64,000 nt of DNA from Candidatus Latescibacterota bacterium (GCA_965248355.1 OZ252098.1:1344001-1408000); one strand, 5' to 3'; positions 4,573 through 64,000 are shown, numbered from the stretch's first letter. Translations and numbers: made by a program. Notes: generated by a model not told the origin, from the letters alone.

Positions 4573-6401
4573 GCCCGGCAGCGGGCGCCCCGGCCCGGGA
4601 GGCGGCCGAGCGGCTGGCCGACGGCCTCTACCCCCACCAGGTGGAGGGCCTCGCCTTCCTCCTCGGCCGGCGGCGGTCGATCCTGGCCGACGACATGGGC
4701 CTGGGCAAGACCCGGCAGTCCGTCCTCGCCCTGGTCCACGCCGAGCCCCGGGGCCCCTGGCTGGTGGTCTGCCCCGCCTCGGTCAAGCGCAATTGGGAGC
4801 GCGAGATCCGTCTCGTGCTGCCGGACGCGGCCACGCACGTCGTCGGTCCGGCCCCGGTGCCGGAGCCCGGCTTCGGCGGCTGGGTGATCGTCAACTACGA
4901 CATCCTCAAGCGGACCTTCGACGAGCTGCTGAGCCACGAGTTTCGCGGGCTGGTCTTCGACGAGGCCCACTACCTGAAGAACCACACCTCCCAGCGCTCG
5001 AAGCTGTCGACGCGCCTGGTGGACCGGACCCCGGGCGACCCCATGGTCCACGCCCTGACCGGCACGCCCCTGACCAACCGGCCCCGCGACCTGTTCCCGC
5101 TTCTGCAGCTCGTGGACCACGCCCTGGGCCGCTCCTTCTTCGGCTTCGCCAGGCGCTACTGCGCCGCCGAGAAGAACGACTACGGCCACTGGATCACCTC
5201 CGGGGCCAGCAACCTGGAGGAGCTGGCCGTGCAGCTGCATGGCATCATGCTGCGGCGCAACAAGGACGAGGTCCTGGACCTGCCCCCCAAGGTGCGCTCC
5301 TGGATCGACATCGACATCCCGGAGCGGGTCCGGGAGTCCCTCGACGAGGCGGTGCGCGCCTTCCTCGGCGACGGCGTCGAGGAACCGCAGCGCGACACCC
5401 GGGGCCGGCGCATGGGGATCGGCATGCTCGCCTCGGCGCGGAAACACCTGGCCATCGCCAAGAGCCGGCACACCCTGGAGTACGTGCAGGGCGCCGTCGA
5501 CCAGGGCGAGAAGGTGCTCGTCTTCACCGGCTTCACCAACCCCGGCCGCCGGTTCTTGCGCCACTTCGGGGACCAGGCCGTGTCGGTCACCGGAAAGACC
5601 CCGGTGAGCCAGCGCCAGGAGCAGGTGGACCGCTTCCAGGAGGACGAGTCGGTGCGCGTCTACGTGGGGCAGATCCACGCCGGCGGCACGGGCGTCAACT
5701 TGACGGCGGCGCGGCAGGTCGTGTTCAACGACCTCGACTGGGTGCCCGCCAACCACTGGCAGGCCGAGGACCGGGCCTACCGCATCGGCCAGACGGGCAC
5801 GGTGAACGTGACCTACATGGTCGGCCGGGGAACGATCGAGGAGTTCGTGCGCACCGTGCTGGAGAACAAGGCGCGCATCGTCGACGACCTGGTGGAGGGC
5901 CGGTCCCTGGGCGACCTCGATGCCGACGTGATGAGCGAGCTGCAGCGCATGCTCAAGAGGCTGGACGTGAGCGCCGAGAGCCTGCGCGCCGGGGATCACG
6001 GCCGCGAGCACCTGGCCCGGGTGCTGAGGGACGCCGGCGAGGAGTACATCCGCGACCAGGGGGAGCGGCTCGGGCCGCAGACCCGGGCCGCCCTGGTGCC
6101 GGTTTCGGAGGGGGCGATCCAGGCCCTGGCGGCGGTCCTGGCCGGCCCCCGGCAACAGGTCTACCGCATCGCCAGCTCCCGAGACCCCGGCCTGCGCTAC
6201 ACCCTCGAGGTGCACGGCGCCGACGTCACCTGCGACTGCCGCGGCTTCCACTACCGGGGCGCCTGCACCCACGCCCGGGTCCTGAAGGAGCACCTCGTGG
6301 CCGGCGCCACCGTGCCCCCGGCCTACGAGCGGGTGGAGGATCCCCCGGCCTCGGCGGGAGCCGCCGCCCCGGACCCCGGAATCCACGCCCCCCACCGATG
6401 A
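4569..6401 (+). CDS. SNF2-family (HARP/SMARCAL1-like) helicase with C-terminal SWIM zinc finger
   Basis: LADDMGLGKT, DEAH, LTGTP, QAEDRAYRIGQ; CDCRGFHYRGACTH. GTG start overlaps the upstream TGA; the 1512 start in the ORF track is spurious. Confidence 0.85.
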   Translation: MSPAAGAPAREAAERLADGLYPHQVEGLAFLLGRRRSILADDMGLGKTRQSVLALVHAEPRGPWLVVCPASVKRNWEREIRLVLPDAATHVVGPAPVPEPGFGGWVIVNYDILKRTFDELLSHEFRGLVFDEAHYLKNHTSQRSKLSTRLVDRTPGDPMVHALTGTPLTNRPRDLFPLLQLVDHALGRSFFGFARRYCAAEKNDYGHWITSGASNLEELAVQLHGIMLRRNKDEVLDLPPKVRSWIDIDIPERVRESLDEAVRAFLGDGVEEPQRDTRGRRMGIGMLASARKHLAIAKSRHTLEYVQGAVDQGEKVLVFTGFTNPGRRFLRHFGDQAVSVTGKTPVSQRQEQVDRFQEDESVRVYVGQIHAGGTGVNLTAARQVVFNDLDWVPANHWQAEDRAYRIGQTGTVNVTYMVGRGTIEEFVRTVLENKARIVDDLVEGRSLGDLDADVMSELQRMLKRLDVSAESLRAGDHGREHLARVLRDAGEEYIRDQGERLGPQTRAALVPVSEGAIQALAAVLAGPRQQVYRIASSRDPGLRYTLEVHGADVTCDCRGFHYRGACTHARVLKEHLVAGATVPPAYERVEDPPASAGAAAPDPGIHAPHR

Positions 6402-6447
6402 CCCCGACATCCCCCAACCGCCGGCCCGGCCGGCGCCCGGAGAACCC

Positions 6448-7803
6448 ATGACCACACTCGACGCCGCCGAGCTCAGACGCCTCGACGGAGACCACTGCTG
6501 GCACCCCCTCTTTCAGCACGGACCCCGCGGATCGGACAACCCGCTGCTCGTCTTCGAGCGCGGCGAGGGCTGCACCCTGTACGACGCCGAGGGGCGGGCC
6601 TACCTCGACGCCGGGGGCGGGTTGTGGAACGTCAACGTCGGGTACGGCCGCCAGGAGATCGCCGCCGCCGCCTTCGAGCAGCTGCAGCGCCTGCCCTTCT
6701 ACCCGCACTCGCAGATCAACGCGCCGGCGGCGCGGCTGGCGGCGCGGCTGGCCGAGCTGCTGCCGGGAGCGCTGTCCCGCACCTTCTACACCAACAGCGG
6801 CTCCGAGGCCAACGAGACCGCCTTCAAGATCGCCCGCCAGTGCCAGCGCCAGCGCCACCCGGGGCAGGACCGCTACAAGATCCTGGCCCGCTACCAGGGC
6901 TACCACGGCTTCACCATGGGGGCCCTGTCGGCCACCGGCCAGGTCGGCCGGCGGCTGCCCTACGAGCCCCTGGTGCCCGGCTTCCAGCACGTGGATCCGC
7001 CGTACTGCTACCGCTGTCCCCTGCACCTGCGCTACCCGGAGTGCGGCATCGCCTGCGTCGACGAGTTCGACGAGCGCATCCGCCGCGAGGGGCCGGAGAC
7101 GGTGGCCGCCGTGGTCGTGGAGCCCGTCATCGGCGGCGGCGGCGTCATCGTGCCGCCCGACGACTACCTGCCGCGGCTGCGCCGGATCTGCGACCGCTAC
7201 GACGTGCTGCTCATCACCGACGAGGTGATCACCGGGTGGGGGCGCACGGGGCGGCTCTTCGCCTGCGAGCACTGGGGGGTGGTCCCCGACATCATGGTGT
7301 TGGCCAAGGGCATCACCTCCGGGTATCTGCCCCTGGGGGCCACGGTGGTGACCGAGGAGATCTTCGACGCCTTCCGCGGCGAGCCCGGCGACGGCCGCGA
7401 GTTCGCCCAGGTCTGCACCTACGGCGGCCACCCGGCCTGCTGCGCCGCGGCCCTGGCCAACATCGACATCCTCACCGCCGAGCGGCTGTGGGAGAGGGCC
7501 GAGGAGGTCGGAGCGCACCTGCTCGAGGGCCTGAGGAAGCTCTCCTCGCCAGTGATCGGCGACGTTCGCGGCCTCGGCCTGATGCTCGCGGTGGAGCTGG
7601 TCGACGAGAGCGGCGCCCTGCTCGATGCGGCGCGCACAGCGGCGGTCAAGGGGGCCCTGCGGGAGCAGGGCGTGCTCGTGGGCCAGATGAGCCACGCCGT
7701 GCAGGGGCCCAACAGCGTCCTGACCCTGTCGCCGCCGCTGGTCCTCGGCCTGGAGGAGGCGGACCGCATCGTCGAGGCCTTCGAGCGGGCCCTGCCCGGC
7801 TGA
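6448..7803 (+). CDS. Class III PLP-dependent aminotransferase
   Basis: SGSEANE, DEVITGWGRTG, AKGITSGYLP, TYGGHP. Confidence 0.92.
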   Translation: MTTLDAAELRRLDGDHCWHPLFQHGPRGSDNPLLVFERGEGCTLYDAEGRAYLDAGGGLWNVNVGYGRQEIAAAAFEQLQRLPFYPHSQINAPAARLAARLAELLPGALSRTFYTNSGSEANETAFKIARQCQRQRHPGQDRYKILARYQGYHGFTMGALSATGQVGRRLPYEPLVPGFQHVDPPYCYRCPLHLRYPECGIACVDEFDERIRREGPETVAAVVVEPVIGGGGVIVPPDDYLPRLRRICDRYDVLLITDEVITGWGRTGRLFACEHWGVVPDIMVLAKGITSGYLPLGATVVTEEIFDAFRGEPGDGREFAQVCTYGGHPACCAAALANIDILTAERLWERAEEVGAHLLEGLRKLSSPVIGDVRGLGLMLAVELVDESGALLDAARTAAVKGALREQGVLVGQMSHAVQGPNSVLTLSPPLVLGLEEADRIVEAFERALPG

Positions 7804-7824
7804 GGTCGGGTGGGGCGCCTCTCG

Positions 7825-8193
7825 TCAGGCGTACCCCAGGGCCTCCAGCTGGTCCTCGTCGAAGCCCATGTAGTGGGCGATCTCGTGGACGAGGGTGATC
7901 TCCAGCTCCGCCTCCAGGTCGGCCAGATCCGGGAAGTCGTACTCCAGCGCGCTCTGGTAGATGCGGATGACGGCCGGCAGGTCGCCGGAGTCCTCCACCC
8001 GGCGCTCCGGCAGCGGCGTGCCGGTGAACAGCCCGTACACGTAGGTCTCCGGATCGCCGTACATCTCGTCCATCAGCTCCGCCTCGGGCCAGTCCTCGAC
8101 GATGACGGCGAGGTTGTCCATGGCTTGCCGGAACGGCTCGGGGATCCGCCGCAGGGCGGCCTCGACGAGGGTTTCGAAACGCTTCCGGTTCAT
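7825..8193 (-). CDS. Zincin-like metallopeptidase (small Zincin_1 type)
   Basis: YGLFTG.PL, ITLVHEIAHYMG.DED.L..LGY. Confidence 0.85.
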   Translation of the reverse strand: MNRKRFETLVEAALRRIPEPFRQAMDNLAVIVEDWPEAELMDEMYGDPETYVYGLFTGTPLPERRVEDSGDLPAVIRIYQSALEYDFPDLADLEAELEITLVHEIAHYMGFDEDQLEALGYA

Positions 8194-8230
8194 GGCTCGC
8201 TCACGGACATGGCGGCTGCACCCGGCGCTC

Positions 8231-10981
8231 TCAGCGCAGCACCACCAGCCGCCGGCGCAGGTAGAGGCCGCCCACGGCGAACTCGTAGTAGTAGAGACCG
8301 CTGGCCGCCTCGAGGCCGGCGTCGTCGCGGCCGTCCCACTCGACCTGGTACACGCCCGGCGCGGCCTCCTGACGCATCAGGCGCCGCACGAGCCCCCCGA
8401 GCAGGTTGCGCACCTCCAGGGTCATGAGACCGCTGCCGCCCAGGGAGGCCGGCAGCGGAGGGACACTGAACTCGATCACCGTGCCGGCGGCGAAGGGGTT
8501 CGGGTAGTTCTGGGCCAGCTCGAACTCGACGGGTATGCGCGGGTCGTGGTTGAGGAAGGGGGTCCAGTCCACCGGCCCGGTCATGCCCGCGGCGATCTCC
8601 CCGGCCTCCCCCGTCCCCCACCAGTTGCGCTTCGCGTCGATCCGGTGCGGGGTGGTGTTGACCACCAGGACCCGGGGCTCGACGACGCTGTTGAGCAGAA
8701 GGGAAACCGGCACCGGAAAGCCCTCCACGGCGAGCACCGTGTCGACCTGGACGAAGCGGTTGCGCAGGATCCGCGGCGCGGCGCTGCGGGACCTCGCGGC
8801 CAGCCGGTAGCCGGACAGGGAATTCCCTTCCAGCACCACGAGCCCGCTGTGTCGAAAATGGACGCCGACGCCCGATCCGGTGAAGCGGTTGCCCTCCACC
8901 GTGCCCCAGGCGCCGTCTCCCATGAGCAGGTCGGCCCCTCCCGCACCCTCGCCGTTGCCCCGCAGATCCGAACCGGTCAGGAAGAGGGCGCCGCCCTCGC
9001 GCACGAGCCCGTAGCCGGCGCAGTCCCGCACGGCGAGGGCGTCGGCCTCGACCGCGGCGCCGCCGAGGATGACGATCCCGGCGCCGCCGGCGCCGGTCAC
9101 CTCCACGGCGTGCAGGCGGACCCGGCCCTCGGCGGATTCCAGGCGCAGACCCGTGCCCGCCACCTCCCGCACCGTGACCCGCCACAGCTCCTGGTCGGCA
9201 GACGACCCCTGGATGGTCAGCCCGTCGGTGGCGTGCTCGATGACGGCCCCGTTCAGCCGCAGGCGGGCCGGGATCGAGACCTGGATCCCGACCCAGTCCC
9301 CCGGCGCCGGTTCCGGGGCCGCGGAGGTGAAGAGCACGGGGGCCGAGGTGGTCACCGTGCCGTCGAAGACGATCTCCCCCCGGTCGGCGTCGGTCCCGCT
9401 CCGCAGGCCGTCCGGCCCGACGAGGACGACGGTGCCGGCCTCGATATGCAGGTCGGACCCCGCCAGGATGCGGACGTCGCCGACGATCTCGATCGTGTCC
9501 CGCCACACCGGCTCGTGGACCAGCCCCGCCCGCCTCGGGTCTTCCACTGTCAGGTCGGCGGCGAAGCCGTCGCCCGTGGGCCGGATGCCGTTGACGTTCA
9601 CCCGGTTCAGGGCCGGATTGGTCAGCGGCGAGAGCTCCGTGAAGCGGATCCCGTCGAAGGGGTCGGTGGCGTCGCCCAGGTTGCCGGCGTGCTTCTCGGC
9701 GTACTCTTCGTCGAGGGACCAGTAGTCGAGGTTGTCCAGTCCCCGGGACGGCGAGGCGAGGGCGCCGAGGGGAAACCCGGCGTCGGTGTAGCGTCCGTCG
9801 GCGCAGACCAGATCCACGAGCTTGTGCCCCTCCAGGTCGTTGCCGCCGGCCGTTTCCCGGATGTGCCAGATCAGCACCCCGCTCGCCGGCAGGTCGCGGT
9901 CGTAGTGGCTGCCCTCGTCGCTGCGATGCTCGACGAGGAGGTACTCCCTCTCGCCGAGGGGCATCTCGTAGACCTGGCCGCCCCGGTTCACGTCGATCAG
10001 CGGCGCCCCGTCGATCGACCCGGTCACCAGCACGAGGCGCTCGTTGTTCACGCCCAGCCACCCGAGCTTCCTGAGGCTCCAGGCGCAGAACGGGTTGGGT
10101 CCGCGGCCGTTGTCGTTCCATCCCCTGGCGCCGTGGCCCATCAGCCCCCAGTAGCCGATCCCCGCCGAGTGCCGGTCCTGGTCTTCTTCGGGGGAGTGGC
10201 GCCTGGCGTCGAGGTCGTAGAGGTCGGGAAGGCCGAAGAGGTGTCCGATCTCGTGGGCGATGATGCCGGCCGCCTCGCCGAAGCTGCGCCCGCGCTGCAG
10301 GGTCCCGCCGCGGTCGGAATCGGCGCGGATCCGGATGGGGAGCCCGGAGGACCTGCCCACGTCCGAGGTCCGGAAGTGCGTGAGGAGCCCGAGGCTGGCC
10401 ACGCCGTTGGCGTCTCCCCGGATGAACCCCGTCGGCGTGGACTGCAGCACGAGGAGCACGAGGTCCACGTAGCCGTCGTCGTCGCCGGAGTCCGGCACGC
10501 CGTCCGGGCCGTCGTCGTCGAAACGGCTGAAGTCGACGCCGGGGTCGGCGGCGGCGGCGGCGAGGATCTCGCGGCTGAAGTTCCCGAAGTAGCCCTCGTC
10601 ACCCCGGGACAGGTAGGCCGCGGCCGGGCCCGCCGAGGTGTAGACCTTGCCGAGGGCCTCCCCCTCCAGCCGGAACTGTCCGCGGGACATCTCGTGGAAG
10701 AAGTGGGACAGGCTGCCCGGCCGATCGGGGTCGAAGAGGTCCCGCGCCCAGGAAGGGGCCGCCGAGGGCCCTTCCTCGTCGAGGAAGCGGGCGAAGATGA
10801 CCACGGCCCGCAGGCGGCCCTTCGAGGGCAGCGCCGCCACCGCCGCCGGACGCGCCGCCGCGTCGAAGCCGGGCCCGCGGACTTCGGCGGGAGCCGGCCC
10901 GGAGGCCAGGAGGATCCCCCCGAGCAGGAGGAGGGCGAGACGGGTGAGGGAGTTCCTGCGGGTCGGCGAGCCCGTCACCAT
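8231..10981 (-). CDS. Secreted M6 (immune inhibitor A) family metalloprotease with beta-helix region and FlgD/T9SS-like C-terminal domain
   Basis: Signal peptide; HEIGHLFGLPDLYD; WGLMGHG; QNYPNPF...WDGRDDAG..AASGLY. Confidence 0.85.
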   Translation of the reverse strand: MVTGSPTRRNSLTRLALLLLGGILLASGPAPAEVRGPGFDAAARPAAVAALPSKGRLRAVVIFARFLDEEGPSAAPSWARDLFDPDRPGSLSHFFHEMSRGQFRLEGEALGKVYTSAGPAAAYLSRGDEGYFGNFSREILAAAAADPGVDFSRFDDDGPDGVPDSGDDDGYVDLVLLVLQSTPTGFIRGDANGVASLGLLTHFRTSDVGRSSGLPIRIRADSDRGGTLQRGRSFGEAAGIIAHEIGHLFGLPDLYDLDARRHSPEEDQDRHSAGIGYWGLMGHGARGWNDNGRGPNPFCAWSLRKLGWLGVNNERLVLVTGSIDGAPLIDVNRGGQVYEMPLGEREYLLVEHRSDEGSHYDRDLPASGVLIWHIRETAGGNDLEGHKLVDLVCADGRYTDAGFPLGALASPSRGLDNLDYWSLDEEYAEKHAGNLGDATDPFDGIRFTELSPLTNPALNRVNVNGIRPTGDGFAADLTVEDPRRAGLVHEPVWRDTIEIVGDVRILAGSDLHIEAGTVVLVGPDGLRSGTDADRGEIVFDGTVTTSAPVLFTSAAPEPAPGDWVGIQVSIPARLRLNGAVIEHATDGLTIQGSSADQELWRVTVREVAGTGLRLESAEGRVRLHAVEVTGAGGAGIVILGGAAVEADALAVRDCAGYGLVREGGALFLTGSDLRGNGEGAGGADLLMGDGAWGTVEGNRFTGSGVGVHFRHSGLVVLEGNSLSGYRLAARSRSAAPRILRNRFVQVDTVLAVEGFPVPVSLLLNSVVEPRVLVVNTTPHRIDAKRNWWGTGEAGEIAAGMTGPVDWTPFLNHDPRIPVEFELAQNYPNPFAAGTVIEFSVPPLPASLGGSGLMTLEVRNLLGGLVRRLMRQEAAPGVYQVEWDGRDDAGLEAASGLYYYEFAVGGLYLRRRLVVLR

Positions 10982-13672
10982 GGGTCAGGCGGCGGGGCTC
11001 GCGTAGTATGGGGAGGGCACCGAAGGATAGGCGCGGTACAGGTGCCGATACACCTCCTCGGCCCTGCAGTCGACATCGGCCTCGGAGTAGACGCGGGGCA
11101 GCCCGGTCTCGTCGCTCCAGAGGAAGTCGCGGACCTCGACCTTGACGGCCGCCCGGGTCGCTTCCCTCTCGCGCCACCGGTCGATGCGCAGCTTCTCCGC
11201 CTTCAACCTCTCCAGCAGCTCTTTCGAGACCTCCTTGACTCGCTCGCTTTCGTGGGGCCGCAACTCCGGTTTCTTCAGCAAGTCGAAGATGGCCAGTTCT
11301 TCCTCGTCCAACCTTTCCAGGACAGCCCGCTGCTCCTCCTGGCTCAGCTTCTGCACGAACTCCAGCAACTCATCGAAGGTCTGCTCGATGGCCACGCGGT
11401 CCTTCTCGCGGTTGTACCTGTCGACGATCTCCTCGTAGTGCTTCTGCAGATCGGTGCGCAAGGGGTTCCGCTCCAGCAGGCGCCGGAGCCTCTGCTCCAC
11501 GGCGTCCTTGAGGGCCTGCACCGTGGTGCTCCTGGCGGGACTGCGCTCGAATTCCCGCTTGAGCCGGTCGAAGTCGATCCCGCTGATGTCCAAGGGGTCC
11601 ATCGGCCCCTCGCCCACTCCCGGCTGCACGTCGATGGCCTCGTCCACCACCTCCTGCAGGGCCCGCAGGATGCCGCTGATGTCGGCCTGCTCGAGGTCCT
11701 GCTGCAGGCTCCGGTAGATCACGTCCACGGCGTCGCGGTCCTCCCGATGGGCGTTGACCTCCTGAAGACCTCGCGGCACATCACCTCGAAGCGTTTCCGG
11801 GTCTGGTCGCTCCTGTTGGCCGCTTCCTTGCAGGCCACGATGGCGGCGTTGCGCTCGAAGCCCGCCGCGTCGATCACGCCGTCCAGCGGGGCCCTGCGCT
11901 TGTCGAGAAAGGCCCGCACGAGACCGATCGCCTCGGCGAGGCCCCCGAGCAACTCCTCGTCCGGTTTCACCGGGCCGATTTCCCCGCCGCCTCCGCCCGT
12001 GCCGCCGTCCGGTGTACCGGCAAAGGTCGCCAGGGCCCTGCGCAAGTGCCTGAGGATGCCGCAGTAGTCGATGACCAGGCCGTTGTTCTTGCCCTCGTGG
12101 ACCCGGTTGGCGCGGGCGACAGCCTGCATGAGGGTGTGGGCCTTGAGTGGCTTGTCGAGGTAGAGGGTGGAGAGGCTGGGCACGTCGAAGCCGGTCAGCC
12201 ACATGGCGCAGACCATGGCGATGCGGAAGGGATGCTCCTCCTCCTTGAAGGCATCGTCCACCGCCATCCGCTGCATGTTGCGGAATCGCGGCCTGCGGCG
12301 CATCGACTCGGGCAGGTCGAGGCCTTCCTTGATCAGCCTGCGGTGCGGCGTGATGTCCAGATCCCACTTGCGGAACTTGCCCACCTCCCCCTGCTCCTCG
12401 CTGACCACGACCGCCATGCGGGTTTCCCGCATCCACTCGATCCGCCGGGCGAGATGGCTCTCCTCCTGCTCGTCCTCCGTCCGCGACTTTGCCCGCTCCA
12501 ACTCCTCGACCCGCTCCTTCCAGTAGCGCTCGATCAGGGCGTGCATGCGCACGCAGGTGACCTTGTCGATGCAGACCACCATCGCCTTGCCGGTCTCCCA
12601 TGCCGCCGAGTAGTGGCGCACGAAGTCGCGCGCCACCTGGTCGAGCCGTCTCTCCGCGGTGATGACGTGACAGTCGCGCTTCAGATCCTGCTCCAGGCGC
12701 TGCTGCACGTCGATGGCCTCGATGGCCAGCTCATCCAGCTTGTCGGCGAGACGCTCGTTCAGGTCGCCGATGGCGAGGCCCAGCCGGTCGCCCCGGGCCT
12801 CGTAGTACAGGGGTACGGTGGCCTCATCCTCCACGGCCCGCTGGAAGTCGTAGGTCGAGACGTACTCGCCGAAGACGCGTCTCGTAATCTCGTCCTCCGT
12901 GAACAGCGGCGTGCCCGTAAAGCCGATGTAACTCGCCTCGGGCAGGGCGTTGCGCATGTTGAGCGCCAGGGAGCCGTACTGTGTGCGGTGGGCCTCGTCG
13001 GTGATGACGACGATATCGCCGCGCCGGGTGTAGGCGGCGGCGGGATCCACGTTGAATTTCTGGATCAGTGAGAAGACGTGGGACTTGTGCTCGGCCAGCA
13101 GCCGGCCGAGGTGCTCTCCACTCGACGCGCGGCAGGGGTCGCGGTCGTGGTCCACCACCCCGCAGCCGGCGAAGGTCTTGTAGATCTGCCCGTCGAGATC
13201 GTCGCGGTCGGTGAGCACGAGGAAGGTGAACTGGCCGCCTACCTTGCGGTGCACCTTGCGCGTGAACATCACCATGGAGTAGCTCTTGCCCGCCCCCTGG
13301 GTGTGCCAGAAAACGCCGAGCCGCCCCTGCCGGTCGCGACGGTCCCGCACCGCCGCGACCGCCCGGTTCACGCCGAGGAACTGGTGATTTCGGGCCAGGA
13401 TCTTCCGCGTCTCCCCGGCCGAGTCGTCGAAGAGAATGAAGTTCTCCACCAGGTCCATGAAGTTGCGTTTGCCGCAGACCCCCTTGAGCAAGGTCTCCAT
13501 GTCGACCGCGCCCGGGGAAGTGTACCCCGTCAACTGGACAGGAATTGGGCTTGTACAAGCGAGAGTCTCGAGATGTAATGGAGCCGTACTGCGCCCCGGC
13601 GCTGGGACCGAAGCCCCGCCTCCCGGACTTGCACCCAGGCCGGGCCACCGAGGCCGTGAGGAGCCCCCGCGC

Positions 13673-16689: not shown

Positions 16690-16934
16690 TCAACTGTTGA
16701 TTCCTTCAGACCGTCAAGATTTGCTTCCGCTCGACTCCAGTCGGCAAAACGATAGCGCTTTCGAATCTCGGCTCCCGACTTGTCCTCAGGGTGCCAGTCC
16801 AAGATCCTGATTGGAGTCTTCTTCCTACCTTGAAACTCAAGTTCCGGCTGGTAGTTTACGTAGTTTGAAAAGACACGGTAGAGGGCCTGTCGCGCATATT
16901 CGTCGTACGTCGGTAGTGAATAACCAACAACACA
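16671..16934 (-). pseudogene. Orphan C-terminal fragment of a probable SIR2-like (SIR2_2) protein
   Basis: VVGYSLPTYDEY motif; AT-richer segment joined directly to the hsdM stub. Confidence 0.45.
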
Positions 16935-53291: not shown

Positions 53292-53606
53292 ATGCCACAG
53301 TCTCACCGTCCGTATCCGCCTGAGTTCCGCCAGCAGATGGTCGAGCTGGTGAGAGCCGGGCGGACCCCCGAGCAGTTGAGCCAGGAGTTCGAGCCCTCGT
53401 CCCAGGCGATTCGCAACTGGGTGCGCCAGGCGGATCGCGACGAGGGGCGGGGAGCCGAGGGAGTCACCCGCGCCGAGCGGGACGAGTTGCGGCGCCTGCG
53501 CCGGGAGAACAAGCGCCTGCGCACGGAGCGGGAGATTCTGTCAAAAGCCGCCACCTGGTTCGCTCGGGAGGCCGATTCGAGGTCGTCGAGGTCTTCGGAT
53601 TCGTGA
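53292..53606 (+). CDS. IS3 OrfA
   Basis: YPPEFRQQMVELV, IRNWVRQ, ELRRLRRENKRLRTEREIL.KA. Confidence 0.9.
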   Translation: MPQSHRPYPPEFRQQMVELVRAGRTPEQLSQEFEPSSQAIRNWVRQADRDEGRGAEGVTRAERDELRRLRRENKRLRTEREILSKAATWFAREADSRSSRSSDS

Positions 53607-55282
53607 GCGCTCACCAGGATCAGTATCCCATCGCCACCATGTGCCGCGTCCTGGGCGTCTCCCCCAGCGGGTACTATGCGTGGCGCCGCCGGCAGCCGTC
53701 GGCGCGCTCCTTGTCCGATGCGCAGTTGACGCCCTTGATCGACCAGGTCCACACGTGGTCGCGAGGCACCTACGGGGTGCCGCGCATGGTCCGGGAGTTG
53801 AGAGCTCGCGGACAGCCCGTCAACCCCAAGCGCGTGGCTCGCCTGATGCGGGAGGCCGGCTTGCAGGGCGTCAGCCGCCGCAAGTCGACGTGTACCACGC
53901 GGCGCGACGCGGACGCTCCGGCGGCGCCCGACCTGGTCGACCGCGACTTCGCGGCGGCCGGTCCGGACGCGTTGTGGGTGGCGGACATCGAGCGCCACGA
54001 GGCGCTGTGGCACCGTGCGGTGGTGAAAGGCCACCGCCTTCAGTCCGTCGCAGCGGGCTGACGTAGCTGAGGGCAGCCGGATCCCAGGGGACGCGGGAGA
54101 AGGCGACAAGCCGCCCTGACAAAGCCGGGACGGACCAGCACCGTCAGATGGGCCGGGTCCGGCGAGCGAGACAGGAAGGTGTACGCAAGGAACCAGTGTC
54201 AAACGCCCCTCAGGAGACCCACCAGCTCGAACCTGACGGATCCGGGCTGGGTTGCGGTGCGCACTGGCACCGGAGTGGTGCCGGAAACTCCCGCGTCGGT
54301 CGATGTCGCCGGCAGGGAGGCCACGGGGAAGGACTGCGGCGTAACCGTGGCGATACCGCAGGGGCATAGTTGGGCACCTCCCCTGTCGAACGGTGGAACA
54401 GGGAACGTGGGAACCCTCCCAGCGGCCCCACCCCGGTCCGCTTCGGGCGGACCGGCGGGAAGGCTCGTCGCCAGCTGATGCCGAGGGGAGGGGGCGGAGG
54501 GGCCGTAGTAGTCCGAGGCCGGGAAAGCCGGTCACATGGCGAAGGACCCCAGCGTGTTCGCAGCCACGATACATCCCATGGAGGCCGCTGATGAACATCG
54601 GCGCACCGTGGCCCGACCTCGAAGAGGCCGAGCCCCGGGTACGAGGAATGCAATCGAAGCTGCACCAGTGGGCGGTGGCCACTGAGCCGCCACCCATCGG
54701 CATGAACACGGGGAGAGCCGGATGCGGCGAGAGTCGCACGTCCGGTTCGGAGGGCGGACCGCAGAAACCCACTCGTTGCGAAACGAACAGGGCGCTGCGG
54801 TCCGACCCTACACCTACGTGCCGACGTGGTCTGGATTCCTGTATCTGGCCGTGGTCCTGGACGCCTGGAGCCGGCGCGTGGTGGGGTGGGCCATGGCCGG
54901 TCATCTGCGGACGGAGTTGGTCGTGCAGGCCTTGGACATGGCCCTCGGGCAACGACGTCGTCCGGAGGGGGTGATTCATCACTCGGATCAGGGATGCCAG
55001 TATTCGTCGCTGGCCTTCGGGCGCCGTTGCCGGGAGGCCGGGGTGCGGCCGTCGAGGGGCTCGGTGGGCGACTGCTACGACAACGCCCTGTGTGAGAGCT
55101 TCTTCGCCACCCTCGAGTGTGAGCTGCTCGACCGTCGCTGCTTCCCGACGCATGAGGTCGCCCGCCGCGAGATTTTTGACTACATCGAGTCTTGGTACAA
55201 CCGGCATCGCCGTCACTCGGCCCTCAACTACGAATCGCCGATGAACTTCGAACGCGCCCATGTCCAGCCGCAGGTTGCCTGA
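53603..55282 (+). CDS. IS3 OrfB transposase in two exons (53603-53989 and 54812-55282), 285 aa when joined
   Basis: Joining gives WVADI|TYVPTWSGFLYLAVVLD, HSDQG, DNALCESFF in one frame without stops. Confidence 0.88.
53990..54811 (+). ncRNA. Group II intron (IIB-like), RT ORF deleted
   Basis: 5' GAGCG; domain V GAGCCGGATGCGGCGAGAGTCGCACGTCCGGTTC (54715-48); domain VI hairpin ending CCGACCCTAC; EBS1 GATGTC (54302-07) complementary to the exon end GACATC; RT N-terminal stub from ATG 54591. Confidence 0.9.
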
Positions 55283-56574
55283 TGCGGGATCTGTTCGCCA
55301 TGAAGCGGATCTTCCCGGGCCCTCCCGGGACCAGCCGGTGCTCTCCCGACCACCCGGTCTCTCGCACCGGGCCGGGGCGCCACACCGGTACCCCGAGCTC
55401 CACCCGGGCTCCGGGGCCGGGGTACTCCCACTCTACAACTTCCACATTCGGCAAAACCTGCCGAAAGCACTTAACTGTCCACCGTACGGGGGTAGCTCCA
55501 GACTTCGAGTTGGCCTTGCGGGGTCTGCTGGGGGGCGCCCCTGTCGGCCTCGTCCATCGCCCGTCTGCGGGCCACGTGGGAAGAGCAGTTCGAGACCTGG
55601 CAGCAGCGGCGGCTGGACGACCGGGAGTTGGTCTACGCTTGGGCCGACGGTATCTACGTGAAGGCCGGCCTGGAGAAGGACAAGGCGGCGTTGCTGGTCG
55701 TCATCGGAGCCCTGAGCGACGGCCGCAAGGAGATCCTGGCGATCCGTGCTGCGCGATCTTCGGGACCGCGGGCTGCCGGCGCCGCGGTTGGTGCTGGCCG
55801 ATGGCGGCCTGCCGATCTGGAGCGCCGTCGACCAGGTCTGGCCCGAGGCCGCGCAGCAGCGCTGCTGGAATCACAAGATCCTCAACGTGCTCAACGACCT
55901 GCCCAAGCGCGTGCAAGGCGCCGCCCGGGCGCTGCTGACGCAGATCCCCACGGCCAAGACCCGTCTGCAAGCCCAGAGACGACGCGACCGCTTCGTGGCC
56001 CGCTACGGCGAGGCCTATCCGGCCGCGTCGGCCACCCTCGAGCGCGACTGGGAGCGCATGGTCACGTTTTGCGACTTCCCGGAGGCGCACTGGAGGCACC
56101 TGCGCACCACCAATCCGGTGGAGAGCCCCTTTGCCTCGGTCCGTTTGCGGACCAACGCGGGCAAACGCTACAAGCGGGTACAGGGAGCCACCGCCCTCAT
56201 CTGACGCGTGCTGAGGGTGGCCGAGACACGATTCCGCAAGCTCAACGCGCCGGAGCTCCTGCCGGCGGTCTACGCCGGACGGAGATGCCAGGACGGCCAA
56301 CCCGTCCAAGGGTTGTCCTCCACCGAGGAAGGAATCAAGAGGGCCGCCTGATCTCGTTTACACACCTTTTGACAGGACCTCCCGTCAGCGATTTGCCTGA
56401 CGCCGCTGCAGGCCTTCAAGAAGGGGGTCCCAACCAAGCCCCGAGCCAAGGAGGCTGCCATGCAGAAAATCGCCGCCTAACCCTCATCCCCGAGCAGGGG
56501 CGAGTGTCAGGTCATTACCGTCACTGTAAACCCCGAGCCCAGGTCATTACCATCACTGCACACCAGTTCGTTAA

Positions 56575-60124: not shown

Positions 60125-61681
60125 TTAGAAGCTTCCACACTCCGGTTCCTCTATGTCCAATACGAAGCCTAGCTGAGTTGCTAGGCCTCGTCGCACTTCC
60201 CCAAGCCCTGCTCTAATCTCGGACGCTCTCACTCTCCGGGCAATTCGGCCATCTAGCCTAGCTATCAGGCTAATCGAATCTTCCGTCGCGCTCCCCTCCT
60301 CCCCCAACGAATGAAGAACCTCCCGCAGCAATGCAGTTCCCTCTAGGACCCGAAGCCGTGGATTTCTCTTTGCCCTAGCAAGCAATTCCTCTCTGCGCTG
60401 GACCGTCTCTTCTCTTCCTGCTCCAACGGGTACTAGGCTCCTGTATAGAGAATCAACCGAGACTCCCCTAGCCTCCGCTGCCGCTCCTACTGCGTATGCT
60501 TCCGCAAACTGACTAGTCGCCCTAACTATCTCCCGGTACACCATGTGATCGTGTTCACACACTTCCTCCATAGGTAGATCTGATGTTGAAACAGTCCCCT
60601 TCGCAGATACCGCAAGGGTATCAAGGCGCCGACTCGTGGCCAGCAGCCCTGGTCCATCGCCTTCCACCGCACGTGCCATGCTAGCCCTCAAGACCCCGAC
60701 CGTAATCTCACCGCGCACTCTCCTACCATTGACAAAAACGGTGGGCGTAGCACGAACGTCACATGCATGCCCAATTGCCATGTGGACACTTAGAGCATCG
60801 CTCAATTCTCCCTTGTCTCGCACCTCTTCATAGCCCTGCGAAGCTATCCCTGACTCCTCTATCACATCCCAAACGACGCCTTGATCAAGCATCCCTCGAT
60901 GGCCCATCAGACGGTCATGGAATTGCCAAAACACTCCCCGTTCCTCTGCAAAAATGGCCGCCTCATGCGCCGGAAAGGCGTTCTCATGAAAGGGTAGGGG
61001 AAAATGGATCAGTTCAAGCCTGACCATTCCCGGATCCTCACTAGCTAACACTTGCACCACGGAGTCAGCCCTAGCGCAGAACGGGCACTCGTAGTCGTAG
61101 AACACGGTCAATCTAATGGGCGCTCCGACGTCGCCAAACCCTGGGGCCACCTCCACCGGGCTTCCGAGGGCCTCACACCTAGGGCCCAGGGGTCGCCTTA
61201 TCAGATACCGCACACCAAAGCTCTCGCGAAGCTTGCGCAGAAGAGAAGCTCTCTCACTCCGCAAGTACTTTGCCGTCAGGGCCTCACGCACCAAGACTAG
61301 GAACCCCCGACTGGGATCATCCCAAACTCCCAGCCGGCTCAACAGCCGTCCCCGCTCCCTAGCGCTTGACGTATCAAACCTTCCTGAGGACCTCAGATCC
61401 TCAATAATCCCCCACAGCCGCTTTTCCACCTCGACATGAATTGCACTTCCCAGATTGTTGGCGGCCAGCTCATCGGAGAACAGAACGGAATCCACTAGCT
61501 CCACTTGGCGATCGAAGATCGAGTCCTTCGTGGAAATCACCCGAGCATCCTGCACCATCTCTTCATAAATTTCCAGGTCACCTACTCGGCCCACAAACCG
61601 AGACTCAGCGAAGCTCCGCACTCCCGACCCCGAGCCTGCCAAGAGCAAAACGACCAGCCACACCAACGGCAGCCGGCCCAC
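60125..61681 (-). CDS. Exported DsbA/thioredoxin-domain protein
   Basis: GGAGG RBS plus GTG and signal peptide; FYDYECPFC, HFPL.FH, ATPTVFVNG. Confidence 0.8.
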   Translation of the reverse strand: MGRLPLVWLVVLLLAGSGSGVRSFAESRFVGRVGDLEIYEEMVQDARVISTKDSIFDRQVELVDSVLFSDELAANNLGSAIHVEVEKRLWGIIEDLRSSGRFDTSSARERGRLLSRLGVWDDPSRGFLVLVREALTAKYLRSERASLLRKLRESFGVRYLIRRPLGPRCEALGSPVEVAPGFGDVGAPIRLTVFYDYECPFCARADSVVQVLASEDPGMVRLELIHFPLPFHENAFPAHEAAIFAEERGVFWQFHDRLMGHRGMLDQGVVWDVIEESGIASQGYEEVRDKGELSDALSVHMAIGHACDVRATPTVFVNGRRVRGEITVGVLRASMARAVEGDGPGLLATSRRLDTLAVSAKGTVSTSDLPMEEVCEHDHMVYREIVRATSQFAEAYAVGAAAEARGVSVDSLYRSLVPVGAGREETVQRREELLARAKRNPRLRVLEGTALLREVLHSLGEEGSATEDSISLIARLDGRIARRVRASEIRAGLGEVRRGLATQLGFVLDIEEPECGSF

Positions 61682-61785
61682 TCGACCTCCTGGAGTGAGA
61701 AACGCCCGGAAATACCTACCCGCCTCTCCGCAGCAATGCCGATGCCCATGGTTCACCTTCCCCCTGGCTTCTTCCATCTTGCTTT

Positions 61786-62571
61786 TCACTCCGTGAAACG
61801 AATACCCAAGAAGGTTGCTGGGGCGAACAGCAAGGGCCCGGTGTCGGCCCATGTACTCCAATCTGAGAATTCTGGCCAAAATGAGTGCGCCGCGAAATTT
61901 CCTCTCCAGATCTCACCTCTCGGTGCACCCGCCACGAAGAGGTCGCTAAACGGAATAGCCATCTCAACTACCCAGCTCTCCCTCATCCTCCCTACCCCAG
62001 TCAAGAGACCCTTCGCGTCCCACCGCACTCCATCCAAGAATGCCATCTCCACTAGAGTCTCGTCAGAAGGCGTTCCATCCCTTCGAATCTGCTCCACCGC
62101 CTGCTCTGACGGCCACCACCTATCGTATACCAGATTGTCTGCATTCACACAGATCTGGAAGAAAGGACCACTTCCACTAGCTTCTGGCTCCAGGAAGACT
62201 TCCACATCATCACTAGATAGCGCAATTTGCTCATCATCGCGCGCAATCCCTGCTCGTTTCACTTGCCCCTCAACACGATAGGGTGTCTGAAAAGACACAT
62301 AGAAATACGTAGAGTCAAACTGAACACACACATTCGTCCGAGCCATGGGCACGATGGCGCGGCCTGAGGTCGTCACCTTCAGATCAATACAACTTGCCCC
62401 TCCCCATTCCCCCGCACCTAGATCACCATCCACTCTTACCCCCTCAACGGCCACAGGCACTACCAAGTGCGGAGTGACTGTCCCGTCCATTGGCTTGCTC
62501 TCACCACTGACCATCCCGACTGAGCAGATGATCCCCCCGACAAGGGCCAATAGTACCGCATCCTTCCCCAT
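61786..62571 (-). CDS. Exported CBM9/DOMON-like protein
   Basis: Signal peptide; VDGDL..GEW, DDVEVFLEP, WVVEMAIPF. Confidence 0.7.
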   Translation of the reverse strand: MGKDAVLLALVGGIICSVGMVSGESKPMDGTVTPHLVVPVAVEGVRVDGDLGAGEWGGASCIDLKVTTSGRAIVPMARTNVCVQFDSTYFYVSFQTPYRVEGQVKRAGIARDDEQIALSSDDVEVFLEPEASGSGPFFQICVNADNLVYDRWWPSEQAVEQIRRDGTPSDETLVEMAFLDGVRWDAKGLLTGVGRMRESWVVEMAIPFSDLFVAGAPRGEIWRGNFAAHSFWPEFSDWSTWADTGPLLFAPATFLGIRFTE

Positions 62572-62725
62572 CGCCAGTTTCCTCCCCTCTCTCCTTACCG
62601 CCAGTTCCAACCCAGACGCCGAGGAGGCTCCCCCGGAAAGCAAGAAGAGGCGCGCGCGCTTTCCGACGGAGCCTCCCTTTTGGGCGTGCTCTGGCAAGTC
62701 TTGTCCTGGAACCTCCCAGATCCCC

Positions 62726-63082
62726 CTAAGGCACCAACACGCACTCCCAGTGGCAGAACATATCCACCATCGTATTTGGGCAATAGTAGGCATCTCCATT
62801 GCTACAGGAGTCCAGCACTGGTTTCCAACTGTATTGGGAATTGCAGTTGTCGTCACACTGCTGCTGCGCCGTGCCGTATATGTCCGCAGGCACGTCGCAG
62901 TTGTAGGTGCTGCAACTCAACGCCGCGCCGCACCGATACGTCAAGGGCGTCTCACCACAGGTCGGGTTGTTTCCAGCAACAGGTACGGCCACGCCGACAT
63001 ACGCGGCTGCCAACCCCAACCCAGCCATCATTCGGGAGACAACCCCCCGATTCTCCCTTGGGTCACCAGAAACGATTGCCAT
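62726..63082 (-). CDS. Small secreted cysteine-rich peptide (10 Cys)
   Basis: GGAGG RBS; 37-aa leader with hydrophobic core; 81-aa mature region with 10 Cys. Confidence 0.65.
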   Translation of the reverse strand: MAIVSGDPRENRGVVSRMMAGLGLAAAYVGVAVPVAGNNPTCGETPLTYRCGAALSCSTYNCDVPADIYGTAQQQCDDNCNSQYSWKPVLDSCSNGDAYYCPNTMVDMFCHWECVLVP

Positions 63083-63210
63083 GTGCGTACTTCCCTCCCT
63101 CTTCTAAAGGGTTATGTGGAAAATGCCTCTCCAAAAAAGCGCGCGCCTCATAACCAGAATTCCCTCACTCACAGTCCAAGTGGTTGGCCTAGCCTTCTCA
63201 AGGCCAATCC

Positions 63211-64000
63211 CTAATCGTTCACTCCGTTCACTCTTGGATGATTCCTAAACACCACGGCCGCATCTTCCAAGAGTGCAGCCGAAGGCTGCACGTAGATCTC
63301 GTGCAGATCCACTAGGGAAGGAATCCTCAATTCCTCTGGAGTCAACTCGTCTCCGAGAATGGCGGAGACCCACAGTGGAATCAGTAGGAACCGTTCATCT
63401 CGGTGAATCTTCGCCATGTATTCTATTGCGCGATGCCACCTCGCCATCTGACTTCCGGCTCCTCCACTGCGTCTGCCTTCCTGATCATGATACAAATGGT
63501 AGGTCCTAGCTTCTGATACATGGACGACGCCTACATCCGCCTGCATCAACCTGTACCCCAGCTCCCATCCCTCACTGAATTCAATCTGCTCATCAAATCC
63601 CCCTACCTCCAGAAACGCACTTCTTGGCACCGTCACATTATGAGGAAAAAAAGCCACCCAGGCAAGTCCGCTGTCTGGCCAAGCCAGGAGAAGTTCCTCA
63701 ATTTGCTTCTGTAGTACATCCTGCCCTGGAAAAGGATAGGCACCTTGCACGGACCTAGATCGTATCTTCTCGAAGTAACCTGTCACCATCTCAGGCGAGA
63801 CCCGGACATCCAAAGATCCATCCCTCAAGTGTCGCTTCACAACGCTGGAGATGACGACATCCGCCTTCAATTCCCCACTCGTAGGGTCATCGACAAACTC
63901 CAAGGTCGGTATACACCACAGACCTCCGGTCAACGCACAATGCCGGCGCATGTCGACAGTCCCCAAATAGACTTCCAACCATCCTGGGTCCGGAAGCGCG
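63211..64000 (-). CDS. Glycosyltransferase family 2, C-terminal part; runs off the window
   Basis: LPDPGWL, N....R..F.EVGGFDE, EGWELGYRL, HLYH; frame open to the window edge. Confidence 0.8.
   Translation of the reverse strand, partial: ALPDPGWLEVYLGTVDMRRHCALTGGLWCIPTLEFVDDPTSGELKADVVISSVVKRHLRDGSLDVRVSPEMVTGYFEKIRSRSVQGAYPFPGQDVLQKQIEELLLAWPDSGLAWVAFFPHNVTVPRSAFLEVGGFDEQIEFSEGWELGYRLMQADVGVVHVSEARTYHLYHDQEGRRSGGAGSQMARWHRAIEYMAKIHRDERFLLIPLWVSAILGDELTPEELRIPSLVDLHEIYVQPSAALLEDAAVVFRNHPRVNGVND

Follow-up and report, generated by a model that had tools for sequence, protein, structure and literature searches.

Among described systems, glycocins such as sublancin, glycocin F, and thermoglycocin/orniglycocin come closest to the locus considered here. 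In these clusters, a small cysteine-rich peptide is encoded beside a family 2 glycosyltransferase (GT2) and a thioredoxin-fold oxidoreductase. According to PMC12457901, glycocin leaders are in all known cases cleaved by a C39 domain, which is part of a peptidase-containing ABC transporter (PCAT), and glycocins with three disulfides are now known. A comparable set of genes is present in a 64,000-nucleotide stretch of the Candidatus Latescibacterota bacterium genome (GCA_965248355.1 OZ252098.1:1344001-1408000), which we call the window. It comprises a GT2 gene, an open reading frame (ORF) of 118 amino acids (aa) with ten cysteines, and genes for three exported proteins and a tetratricopeptide repeat (TPR) protein. 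This region is the downstream two-thirds of a ~10.3-kb island of low guanine-plus-cytosine (GC) content, bounded by insertion sequences (ISs) and holding seven co-oriented genes. We tentatively take the island to be a variant, with cargo of its own, of a two-glycosyltransferase module that is undescribed and linked to secreted disulfide-rich peptides, and give this reading a probability of roughly 0.45. The module itself, consisting of a GT-B glycosyltransferase fused to a transglutaminase core, the GT2, and the TPR protein, is conserved and specific to one bacterial family.

The seven island genes are listed below in their 5' to 3' order; positions past the end of the window are given as window-equivalent coordinates.

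64281-66761 (window-equivalent, outside the window), minus strand: fusion of a GT-B glycosyltransferase with a transglutaminase core, 826 aa (Pfam/NCBIfam)
63211..64000 in the window and on to 64284, minus strand: GT2 (GT-A) glycosyltransferase, 357 aa, with a TTG start and GGAGG upstream (Pfam)
62726..63082, minus strand: unannotated 118-aa ORF with a leader and a ten-cysteine part; the ATG start, like the ribosome-binding site given further below, was read from the sequence
61786..62571, minus strand: CBM9-like exported protein, 261 aa, with a signal-like N-terminus and its own Shine-Dalgarno sequence
60125..61777, minus strand: DsbA-domain protein, exported or membrane-anchored, 550 aa, with a hydrophobic N-terminal segment
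58435..60060, minus strand: exported protein with leucine-rich repeats (LRRs) and a PD40/TolB-like beta-propeller, 541 aa
56725..57906, minus strand: cytoplasmic TPR protein, third member of the module, 393 aa (Pfam TPR_12, E-value (E) 2.9e-22)

The GT2 gene had been recognized in a sequence-only reading of the window, which placed it on the minus strand with its neighbors and supposed that the cluster continued past the window. Both statements hold. The full GT2 protein matches Pfam Glycos_transf_2 (PF00535) with an E of 1.7e-19, and its gene reaches 64284, where the stop codon of the 826-aa fusion gene overlaps the GT2 start (TTGA). Module loci were collected from a metagenome contig scan with alignment, which gave 23 loci (in 16, the GT2 matched over its full length), and from genomes, where 38 places were retrieved; the total is 54 loci, some of which are near-duplicates. 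Six of the 54 do not hold both genes and are contig-end fragments or distant variants. In 47 of the 48 loci holding both, the GT2 gene directly follows the fusion gene, the exception being a 4.7-kb insertion. A TPR homologue adjoins the glycosyltransferase pair in 25 of the 48 by tblastn (14 after the GT2 and 11 before the fusion), and in more by Pfam. In the island, the TPR gene is parted from the GT2 by four genes (5.3 kb), and a comparable insertion is seen only in the metagenome locus L015. Among the 168 genomes of the phylum, 33 have the fusion gene, at up to five copies per genome and in one family only (32 of 75 family genomes excluding the source genome, 0 of 92 genomes of other families).

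The N-terminal half of the fusion protein is a GT-B enzyme with EryCIII-like_C (E 5.5e-14), UDPGT, and MGT-type matches, and its C-terminal part is a transglutaminase core (E 2.3e-14). This core has Cys683, His729, and Glu744, which 51 of 51 distinct sequences share without variation, and the domain is therefore probably catalytic. For the GT2, 13 of 13 sequences keep the DxD motif residues D93 and D95, and full-length homologues align at 37-46% identity (alignment A1). The named members of one GT2 homologue cluster are Gemmatimonadetes/Gemmatimonadota proteins from metagenome-assembled genomes (NCBI); a single-protein search of genome contigs returned no GT2 relatives. An AlphaFold2 (AF2) model of the GT2 has a predicted local distance difference test score (pLDDT) of 87, and the top Foldseek matches to this model are all GT-A enzymes and appear generic. 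Against the PDB, the GT2 profile finds chondroitin synthase best (E 1.7e-30). The glycocin enzyme SunS (7msp, 7msn) is found at an E of 0.009-0.012 and 18 bits, behind 44 other PDB sequences, and is absent from the listed Foldseek matches (ranks 1-50). The sequence-only reading had likened the cluster to that of sublancin; with SunS so distant and no C39 or PCAT, this likeness in kind does not hold.

Several loci depart from the usual module layout. In the high-GC metagenome contig L026 (6557-8746 and 11257-12891), a distant variant has the GT2, not the GT-B, fused to the transglutaminase core; a second GT2 comes next, followed by a 544-aa putative lipoprotein with 28 cysteines, beside an Lgt gene. 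In the low-GC loci L056 (9319-11889) and L078 (oriented, 9322-11892), the GT2 homologue has 856 aa with a long C-terminal extension, and small secreted proteins of 90-180 aa come after it. Locus L079 has two tandem copies of a 72-aa secreted protein (4838-5383) and a GT-B/transglutaminase gene broken by an inserted 316-aa ORF (5414-9199).

Around the module in relatives there are small secreted proteins whose leaders are conserved and whose mature parts vary and are mostly cysteine-rich. Three families, termed A2, A3, and A5, are exemplified below. A family of four-cysteine peptides is also present in L053 and L058, and none of the four families has a Pfam or NCBIfam match.

A2, ~80-aa cysteine-free secreted protein: L014:7212-7451, L011:2778-3023, L022:7221-7466, L019:4072-4311, and others
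A3, six-cysteine peptides: L050:12631-12816, L061:5403-5582, L073:5565-5744, and 8 more
A5, peptides with a long leader and 4-10 cysteines: L052:1880-2206, L063:16235-16507, L072:11925-12125

A5 proteins share a long conserved leader, and a single genome can have as many as 20 copies; some of the proteins are longer, with C-terminal sorting domains of the type IX secretion system (T9SS) type. The A5 count covered 14 few-contig genomes, with four second matches in one open frame dropped and with fragmented assemblies and three unlisted matches left out. In this set, 62 of 95 A5 matches are no farther than 30 kb from a module gene, where 3.3 would be expected, and 34 of the 95 no farther than 10 kb, where 1.1 would be expected, and 15 of 36 module loci have at least one A5 match within 30 kb. 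In the genus g14, module and A5 are found together in 20 genomes, the module only in 2, A5 only in 1, and neither in 8. The association of the module with A5 is far beyond chance, and its figures are inflated by tandem arrays and kinship. The source genome has two A5 members, both far from the island (G000 2347961-2348926 and 2929778-2930086).

A3 consists of 11 six-cysteine genes in 8 module loci, with a near-invariant signal-like leader of 26 residues and a variable core of ~33 aa. ABC-2 permeases and exported proteins are encoded alongside. By a hand count in five genomes, 11 of 16 strong A3 matches are at most 7 kb away from a module gene, a range that takes in ~1% of the genome. A2 is the first gene before the fusion gene in 13 loci (14 ORFs). 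Its C-terminal end is conserved, with a Y-V-Q-V-G-like motif followed by a terminal P-P-x-P-E (Q in two loci). In the A2 loci, sigma-54 activators with Reg_prop/Y_Y_Y domains are encoded upstream and a histidine kinase downstream; the source genome has no A2 homologue. Locus L015 parallels the island with a glycosyltransferase pair, a 53-aa secreted peptide with six cysteines, three exported proteins, and a TPR protein. The sequence-only reading had suggested a RiPP-like (a peptide made by ribosomes and modified after translation) or host-interaction module of an undescribed kind. That suggestion is somewhat strengthened because the glycosyltransferase pair is co-located with secreted cysteine-rich families and L015 has the same layout; the glycocin analogy attached to it falls away. 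The tie between enzymes and peptides is purely one of gene neighborhood. Neither the module nor the peptide families were found described in the open-access full texts that were searched.

The 118-aa ORF fills an otherwise empty 640-bp gap between the GT2 and the CBM9-like gene. The following features belong to it.

63092..63099, minus strand: Shine-Dalgarno-like GGGAGGGA, 9 nt before the ATG
62972-63082, minus strand: signal-like leader, residues 1-37
62729-62971, minus strand: 81-aa ten-cysteine part
62622..62677, minus strand: stable 20-bp stem-loop without a U-run, ~50 nt past the stop codon

The leader, the 81-aa mature part, and the ten-cysteine spacing are exactly as the sequence-only reading gave them. 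The cysteines of the 81-aa part are at positions 5, 14, 20, 25, 39, 43, 56, 64, 73, and 77, which corresponds to C-x8-C-x5-C-x4-C-x13-C-x3-C-x12-C-x7-C-x8-C-x3-C. Inspected by eye, the leader shows a basic n-region (R9, R12, R17), a hydrophobic stretch of 19 residues, and V-A-G before N38, and a hydrophobicity heuristic gives 1.95; export of this and the other island proteins was judged from sequence only. In the frame of the ORF, the GC content of the third codon position (GC3) exceeds that of the first and second (GC1 and GC2). A six-frame census of the genome holds 5851 ORFs of 80-160 aa that start with ATG, and 72 of them have at least 8% cysteine. Two of the 72 also have a cysteine-free signal-like leader and only the 118-aa ORF adds an Arg- and Pro-poor mature part, by criteria for cysteine, leader, and Arg+Pro that were set after the ORF had been seen. 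We consider it probable that the 118-aa ORF is a real gene. The stem-loop past its stop codon is retained in the centroid structure, and the whole 157-nt spacer is no stabler than its shuffles (z 0.22). The stem-loop might stabilize the transcript or attenuate it behind a small structural gene, or it might be meaningless.

The ORF is absent from the protein collection, which contains the downstream CBM9-like gene only as a 337-aa form (window 61786-62856). By the ORF coordinates, this form would begin inside the 118-aa ORF. It looks over-extended, because a separate Shine-Dalgarno sequence and signal peptide mark the CBM9-like gene at 62571, and a probable over-extension of this kind would explain why the 118-aa ORF is missing from the collection. 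Pattern scans of genome and metagenome contigs were empty, and the protein atlas gave no usable match. With phmmer, two matches were returned from 1.84 billion representatives; they have 1586 and 1894 aa, consist of repeats or low-complexity sequence, and were judged spurious. The best foreign matches of a six-frame search in 61 related genomes (E 0.001-0.01) are antisense to a sulfatase gene. The possibility that the ORF belongs to A2, A3, or A5 was considered and is rejected by profile scores; the ORF is also absent from the genome-wide matches of the three profiles, and a MAFFT alignment that seemed to match its leader and C-terminus to these families is backed by no profile score.

The four genes between the GT2 and the TPR gene, namely the 118-aa ORF and those for the CBM9-like, DsbA-like, and LRR/propeller proteins, are an orphan exported cargo of this module copy. 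Relatives of the 118-aa peptide, the CBM9-like protein, and the DsbA-like protein are absent from all 54 loci, and the LRR/PD40 query matched only L025 and L026 among them, through its PD40 part. The exported CPFC oxidoreductase of the sequence-only reading is confirmed by Pfam DSBA (E 1e-13) and Thioredoxin_4 (E 2.5e-12) matches, and its CPFC is at residues 231-234, encoded at 61076-61087. Homologues of its central domain occur at 31-36% identity in 21 of 75 family genomes. For the exported CBM9-like protein of the same reading, the gene and the signal-like N-terminus stand, and the atlas assigns it at 0.96 to CBM9_1 clusters; the Pfam CBM9_1 match (E 0.0027, 18 bits) falls under the 23.4 cutoff. 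There is no PDB sequence match for this protein, and distant homologues at ~30% identity occur in 48 of 75 genomes of the same family. The LRR/propeller protein matches Pfam PD40 (E 2.9e-30) and LRR_4 (E 2.9e-17), together with an NCBIfam TolB propeller (E 2.9e-51, below cutoff).

The seven island genes have a GC content of 0.53-0.61 in a genome of ~0.68-0.72, and GC is 0.52-0.59 inside the island vs 0.66-0.72 outside. At the left edge, GC falls from ~0.68 to ~0.56 at roughly 56.0-56.5 kb, where the following fragment is found.

55746..56204, plus strand: Mutator-family transposase fragment at the left island edge (Pfam)

Further left, at 51.5-55.3 kb, there are ISL3 and IS3 copies (Pfam), and the right flank has an ISL3-end remnant with IS630-type and DUF772 transposase genes. 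Transposase genes thus flank both sides, and the region is therefore an IS-bounded island. Island DNA is present in four runs from one sample of one study, with no RNA run among them. In the short-read contigs of this sample, the island is one 11,545-nt piece between IS copies with zero variant letters; the contigs end at an IS on either side, and the join to the chromosome is thereby neither confirmed nor refuted. Scans for promoters gave 8 sigma-54 pattern matches where 8.3 were expected and no excess of sigma-70 patterns over chance.

Three further observations concern the flanks and integrity of the island. Inverted repeats of 25 nt, 88% complementary and 10.9 kb apart, bracket it at window 56281-56305 and window-equivalent 67237-67261 (L132:5781-5805 and 16737-16761). 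An IS3 orfA/orfB pair at window 53292-55282 is interrupted by ~0.85 kb, as seen from split ORFs and Pfam matches. In run X4, a low-depth contig (2.4) joins L132:10315 to 19387 (window 60815 to window-equivalent 69887) and so omits 9 kb, from within the DsbA-like gene to past the right-hand IS. This contig may represent a strain variant without the glycosyltransferase part of the island, or a repeat artefact.

If the island is a cargo-carrying variant of the module, the 118-aa product would be made and exported by Sec, and the co-encoded DsbA-like protein would oxidize it to form up to five disulfides. The product would be a target or partner of the cytoplasmic glycosyltransferase pair, which would presumably glycosylate it before export. 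The TPR protein may capture or present the substrate, the Cys-His-Glu transglutaminase-fold domain may process it, and the CBM9-like and LRR/propeller proteins may be co-exported partners with a surface or host-directed role. A more specific proposal, which we regard as rather unlikely, makes the fusion, the GT2, and the TPR protein an undescribed machine that matures secreted, disulfide-rich peptides of ribosomal origin. Its TPR protein would hold the conserved leader, the two glycosyltransferases would glycosylate in the cytoplasm, and the Cys-His-Glu domain would trim or transfer. Dozens of venom-like precursors would have diversified around this machine, with the window holding a singleton ten-cysteine, five-disulfide variant that has its own DsbA.

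A number of observations weigh against tying the module to disulfide-rich peptides. The commonest module subtype has the cysteine-free A2 protein instead, 21 of the 36 module loci lack any A5-family gene within 30 kb, and the co-location counts overstate independence because tandem arrays and related genomes are included. Both glycosyltransferases lack signal and transmembrane segments and hence would act in the cytoplasm, whereas the substrate proposed for them is exported. The GT-B part is akin to small-molecule (macrolide-type) glycosyltransferases, and the predicted GT2 fold resembles polysaccharide and teichoic-acid enzymes no less than peptide-modifying ones. The 118-aa ORF has a codon score of -0.05, the same as an antisense frame, where the island genes score 0.13-0.20, and a single-sequence AF2 model of it has a pLDDT of 46 and no confident fold. 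By hmmsearch, it obtains negative bit scores for A3, A5, and a 47-member A5-derived profile, and 4.6 bits for A2. The sequence-only reading had looked to conservation of the small ORF, and to its co-occurrence with GT2 and DsbA, as what would bear it out. Neither is seen, as there is no homologue of the ORF among ~5.8 billion clustered proteins, 1.84 billion representatives, and the genome and metagenome scans, and no locus elsewhere joins peptide relatives with a GT2 and a DsbA. Lastly, the island lacks the regulators and ABC-2 transporters that relatives show and is enclosed by ISs, and it may therefore be a non-functional remnant.

Some of these points lead to a different account, in which the module assembles or remodels a non-protein glycoconjugate (for instance a glycolipid, a small molecule, or a glycan of the envelope or the extracellular space) and the exported proteins, the ten-cysteine one included, are unglycosylated cargo or lectin-like binders. 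We judge this somewhat unlikely. It draws on the sequence and fold matches of the GT2, which are led by chondroitin polymerase, TarS/TarP, RmlT, and PglI-type enzymes, on the macrolide/EryCIII-type matches of the GT-B half, on the apparently cytoplasmic glycosyltransferases beside exported neighbors, and on carbohydrate-binding-type neighbors, such as the CBM9-like protein here and an F5/8 type C domain protein in L049. However, the island has no flippase, polymerase, undecaprenyl-phosphate priming transferase, or sugar-nucleotide genes, and none were seen in the subset of neighbors scanned with Pfam/NCBIfam at 10 related loci. The sequence-only reading had itself allowed for a glycosyltransferase that belonged to an upstream polysaccharide operon. 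Of that, the upstream partner is real and conserved in 47 of 48 loci, and a recognizable polysaccharide operon is lacking. The same holds for its interest in upstream transporters or modifying enzymes, since a GT-B/transglutaminase enzyme is there and a C39 or ABC transporter is not in the island. Moreover, the invariant papain-type triad fused to a glycosyltransferase, along with the TPR partner, suggests a protein or peptide substrate, and a glycoconjugate would leave the repeated tight co-location with leader-conserved peptide families unexplained.

It is also conceivable, and in our estimate unlikely, that the 118-aa ORF stays open by chance alone within a non-coding spacer of 640 bp and that the real content is the glycosyltransferase module with three exported proteins, which would be compatible with either the peptide-tied module or the glycoconjugate. 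This would account for the failure of the database, six-frame, and pattern searches to find a homologue, for the absence of the ORF from a protein collection that has only the 337-aa downstream form, and for a codon score no better than that of an antisense frame. Several long ORFs in other frames overlap the same spot, and the protein language-model recognition value is low (1810). A chance frame would, however, have to combine a Shine-Dalgarno sequence at the proper distance with a cysteine-free signal-like leader and an Arg/Pro-poor part holding an even number (10) of cysteines, a combination found in 1-2 of 5851 comparable ORFs of the genome. The CBM9-like gene, furthermore, has its own start signals at 62571, which leaves the 337-aa form looking over-extended, and small cysteine-rich genes occupy the equivalent slot of L015. 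Lack of close relatives is not unique to the ORF either, because its CBM9-like neighbor also has none. A true RiPP cluster of the glycocin type, in which a SunS/GccA-like S- or O-glycosyltransferase would modify a cysteine-rich precursor that bears a leader, is very improbable and close to refuted. The adjacency of a GT2, a small cysteine-rich ORF, and a thiol-disulfide oxidoreductase fits such a cluster, as do the three-disulfide glycocins described in PMC12457901. Against it stand the low rank of SunS in the sequence comparison and its absence from the listed Foldseek matches, the lack of a C39 peptidase or ABC transporter in the island, the Sec-like leader, and the 81-aa mature part with ten cysteines.

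Disulfide-rich, protease-stable peptides are wanted as drug scaffolds, and PMC12426817 reports such peptides from sponges. If the module decorates secreted cysteine-rich peptides, it would be a glycopeptide pathway with enzymes unrelated to those of glycocins, and a natural library of precursor variants would be at hand, with dozens per genome in related bacteria. If the maturation-machine proposal is true, an uncultured bacterial lineage would be the source of glycosylated peptide natural products that form a new class. Even without a link to glycosylation, three things are new as judged from the texts searched: a two-glycosyltransferase/TPR module strongly co-located with leader-conserved, core-variable peptides, a sigma-54-regulated subtype with an 80-aa cysteine-free secreted protein, and an invariant Cys-His-Glu domain fused to a glycosyltransferase. 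The window alone is worth less, as its peptide is an orphan and the island may be a remnant.

Soluble cytoplasmic glycosyltransferases that modify proteins are known from the HMW1C-type N-glycosyltransferase, GtfA/B of serine-rich adhesins, and OGT with its TPR; the proteins are exported afterwards, and the TPR captures the substrate. By comparison, the substrates there are large adhesins, not small cysteine-rich peptides, and no sequence relationship was seen, though no search was aimed at one. The lasso-peptide B protein offers a second parallel. A transglutaminase/papain-fold cysteine domain is encoded there beside small precursor genes (see PMC9266682), and this protein offers a precedent for leader removal by a transglutaminase fold. 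In the module, on the other hand, the domain is fused to a GT-B enzyme and Glu replaces the usual Asp. A macrolactam synthetase (C protein) and a RiPP recognition element are also absent here, and the likeness to lasso systems is one of description alone.

The peptide families themselves recall venom-type superfamilies. The A3 leaders are nearly invariant while the mature parts retain only the cysteine framework, and PMC12426817 describes a conserved leader with a variable core for bioactive peptides generally. Venom superfamilies are animal genes, whereas the families described here are bacterial and tied to a glycosyltransferase module, and the 118-aa ORF is a singleton outside any such family.

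The comparison with glycocins is the most instructive. Both kinds of locus have a papain-type cysteine-protease-fold domain, which is C39 in glycocin clusters and a transglutaminase fold here. In glycocin clusters this fold is joined to an ABC transporter, while here it is joined to a second, GT-B enzyme. The GT2 is not of the SunS/GccA type, and of the glycocin cluster features compared only the oxidoreductase is present. A double-glycine leader and a PCAT are found there; here the leader is Sec-like and there is no PCAT, and the seven-gene island has neither a C39 domain nor an ABC transporter, in agreement with the differences that the sequence-only reading had listed for the window. Glycocins have ~40-50 aa and 2-3 disulfides as given in PMC12457901, compared to 81 aa and ten cysteines here, and the host of the island belongs to an uncultured lineage of the Gram-negative type. 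Membership in the glycocin clusters is thus ruled out by the GT2 and the absence of C39/PCAT, and the Sec-like leader speaks against it as well. With its cysteine-rich peptide, glycosyltransferase, thiol oxidoreductase, and papain-type domain, the locus appears to work loosely like a glycocin cluster.

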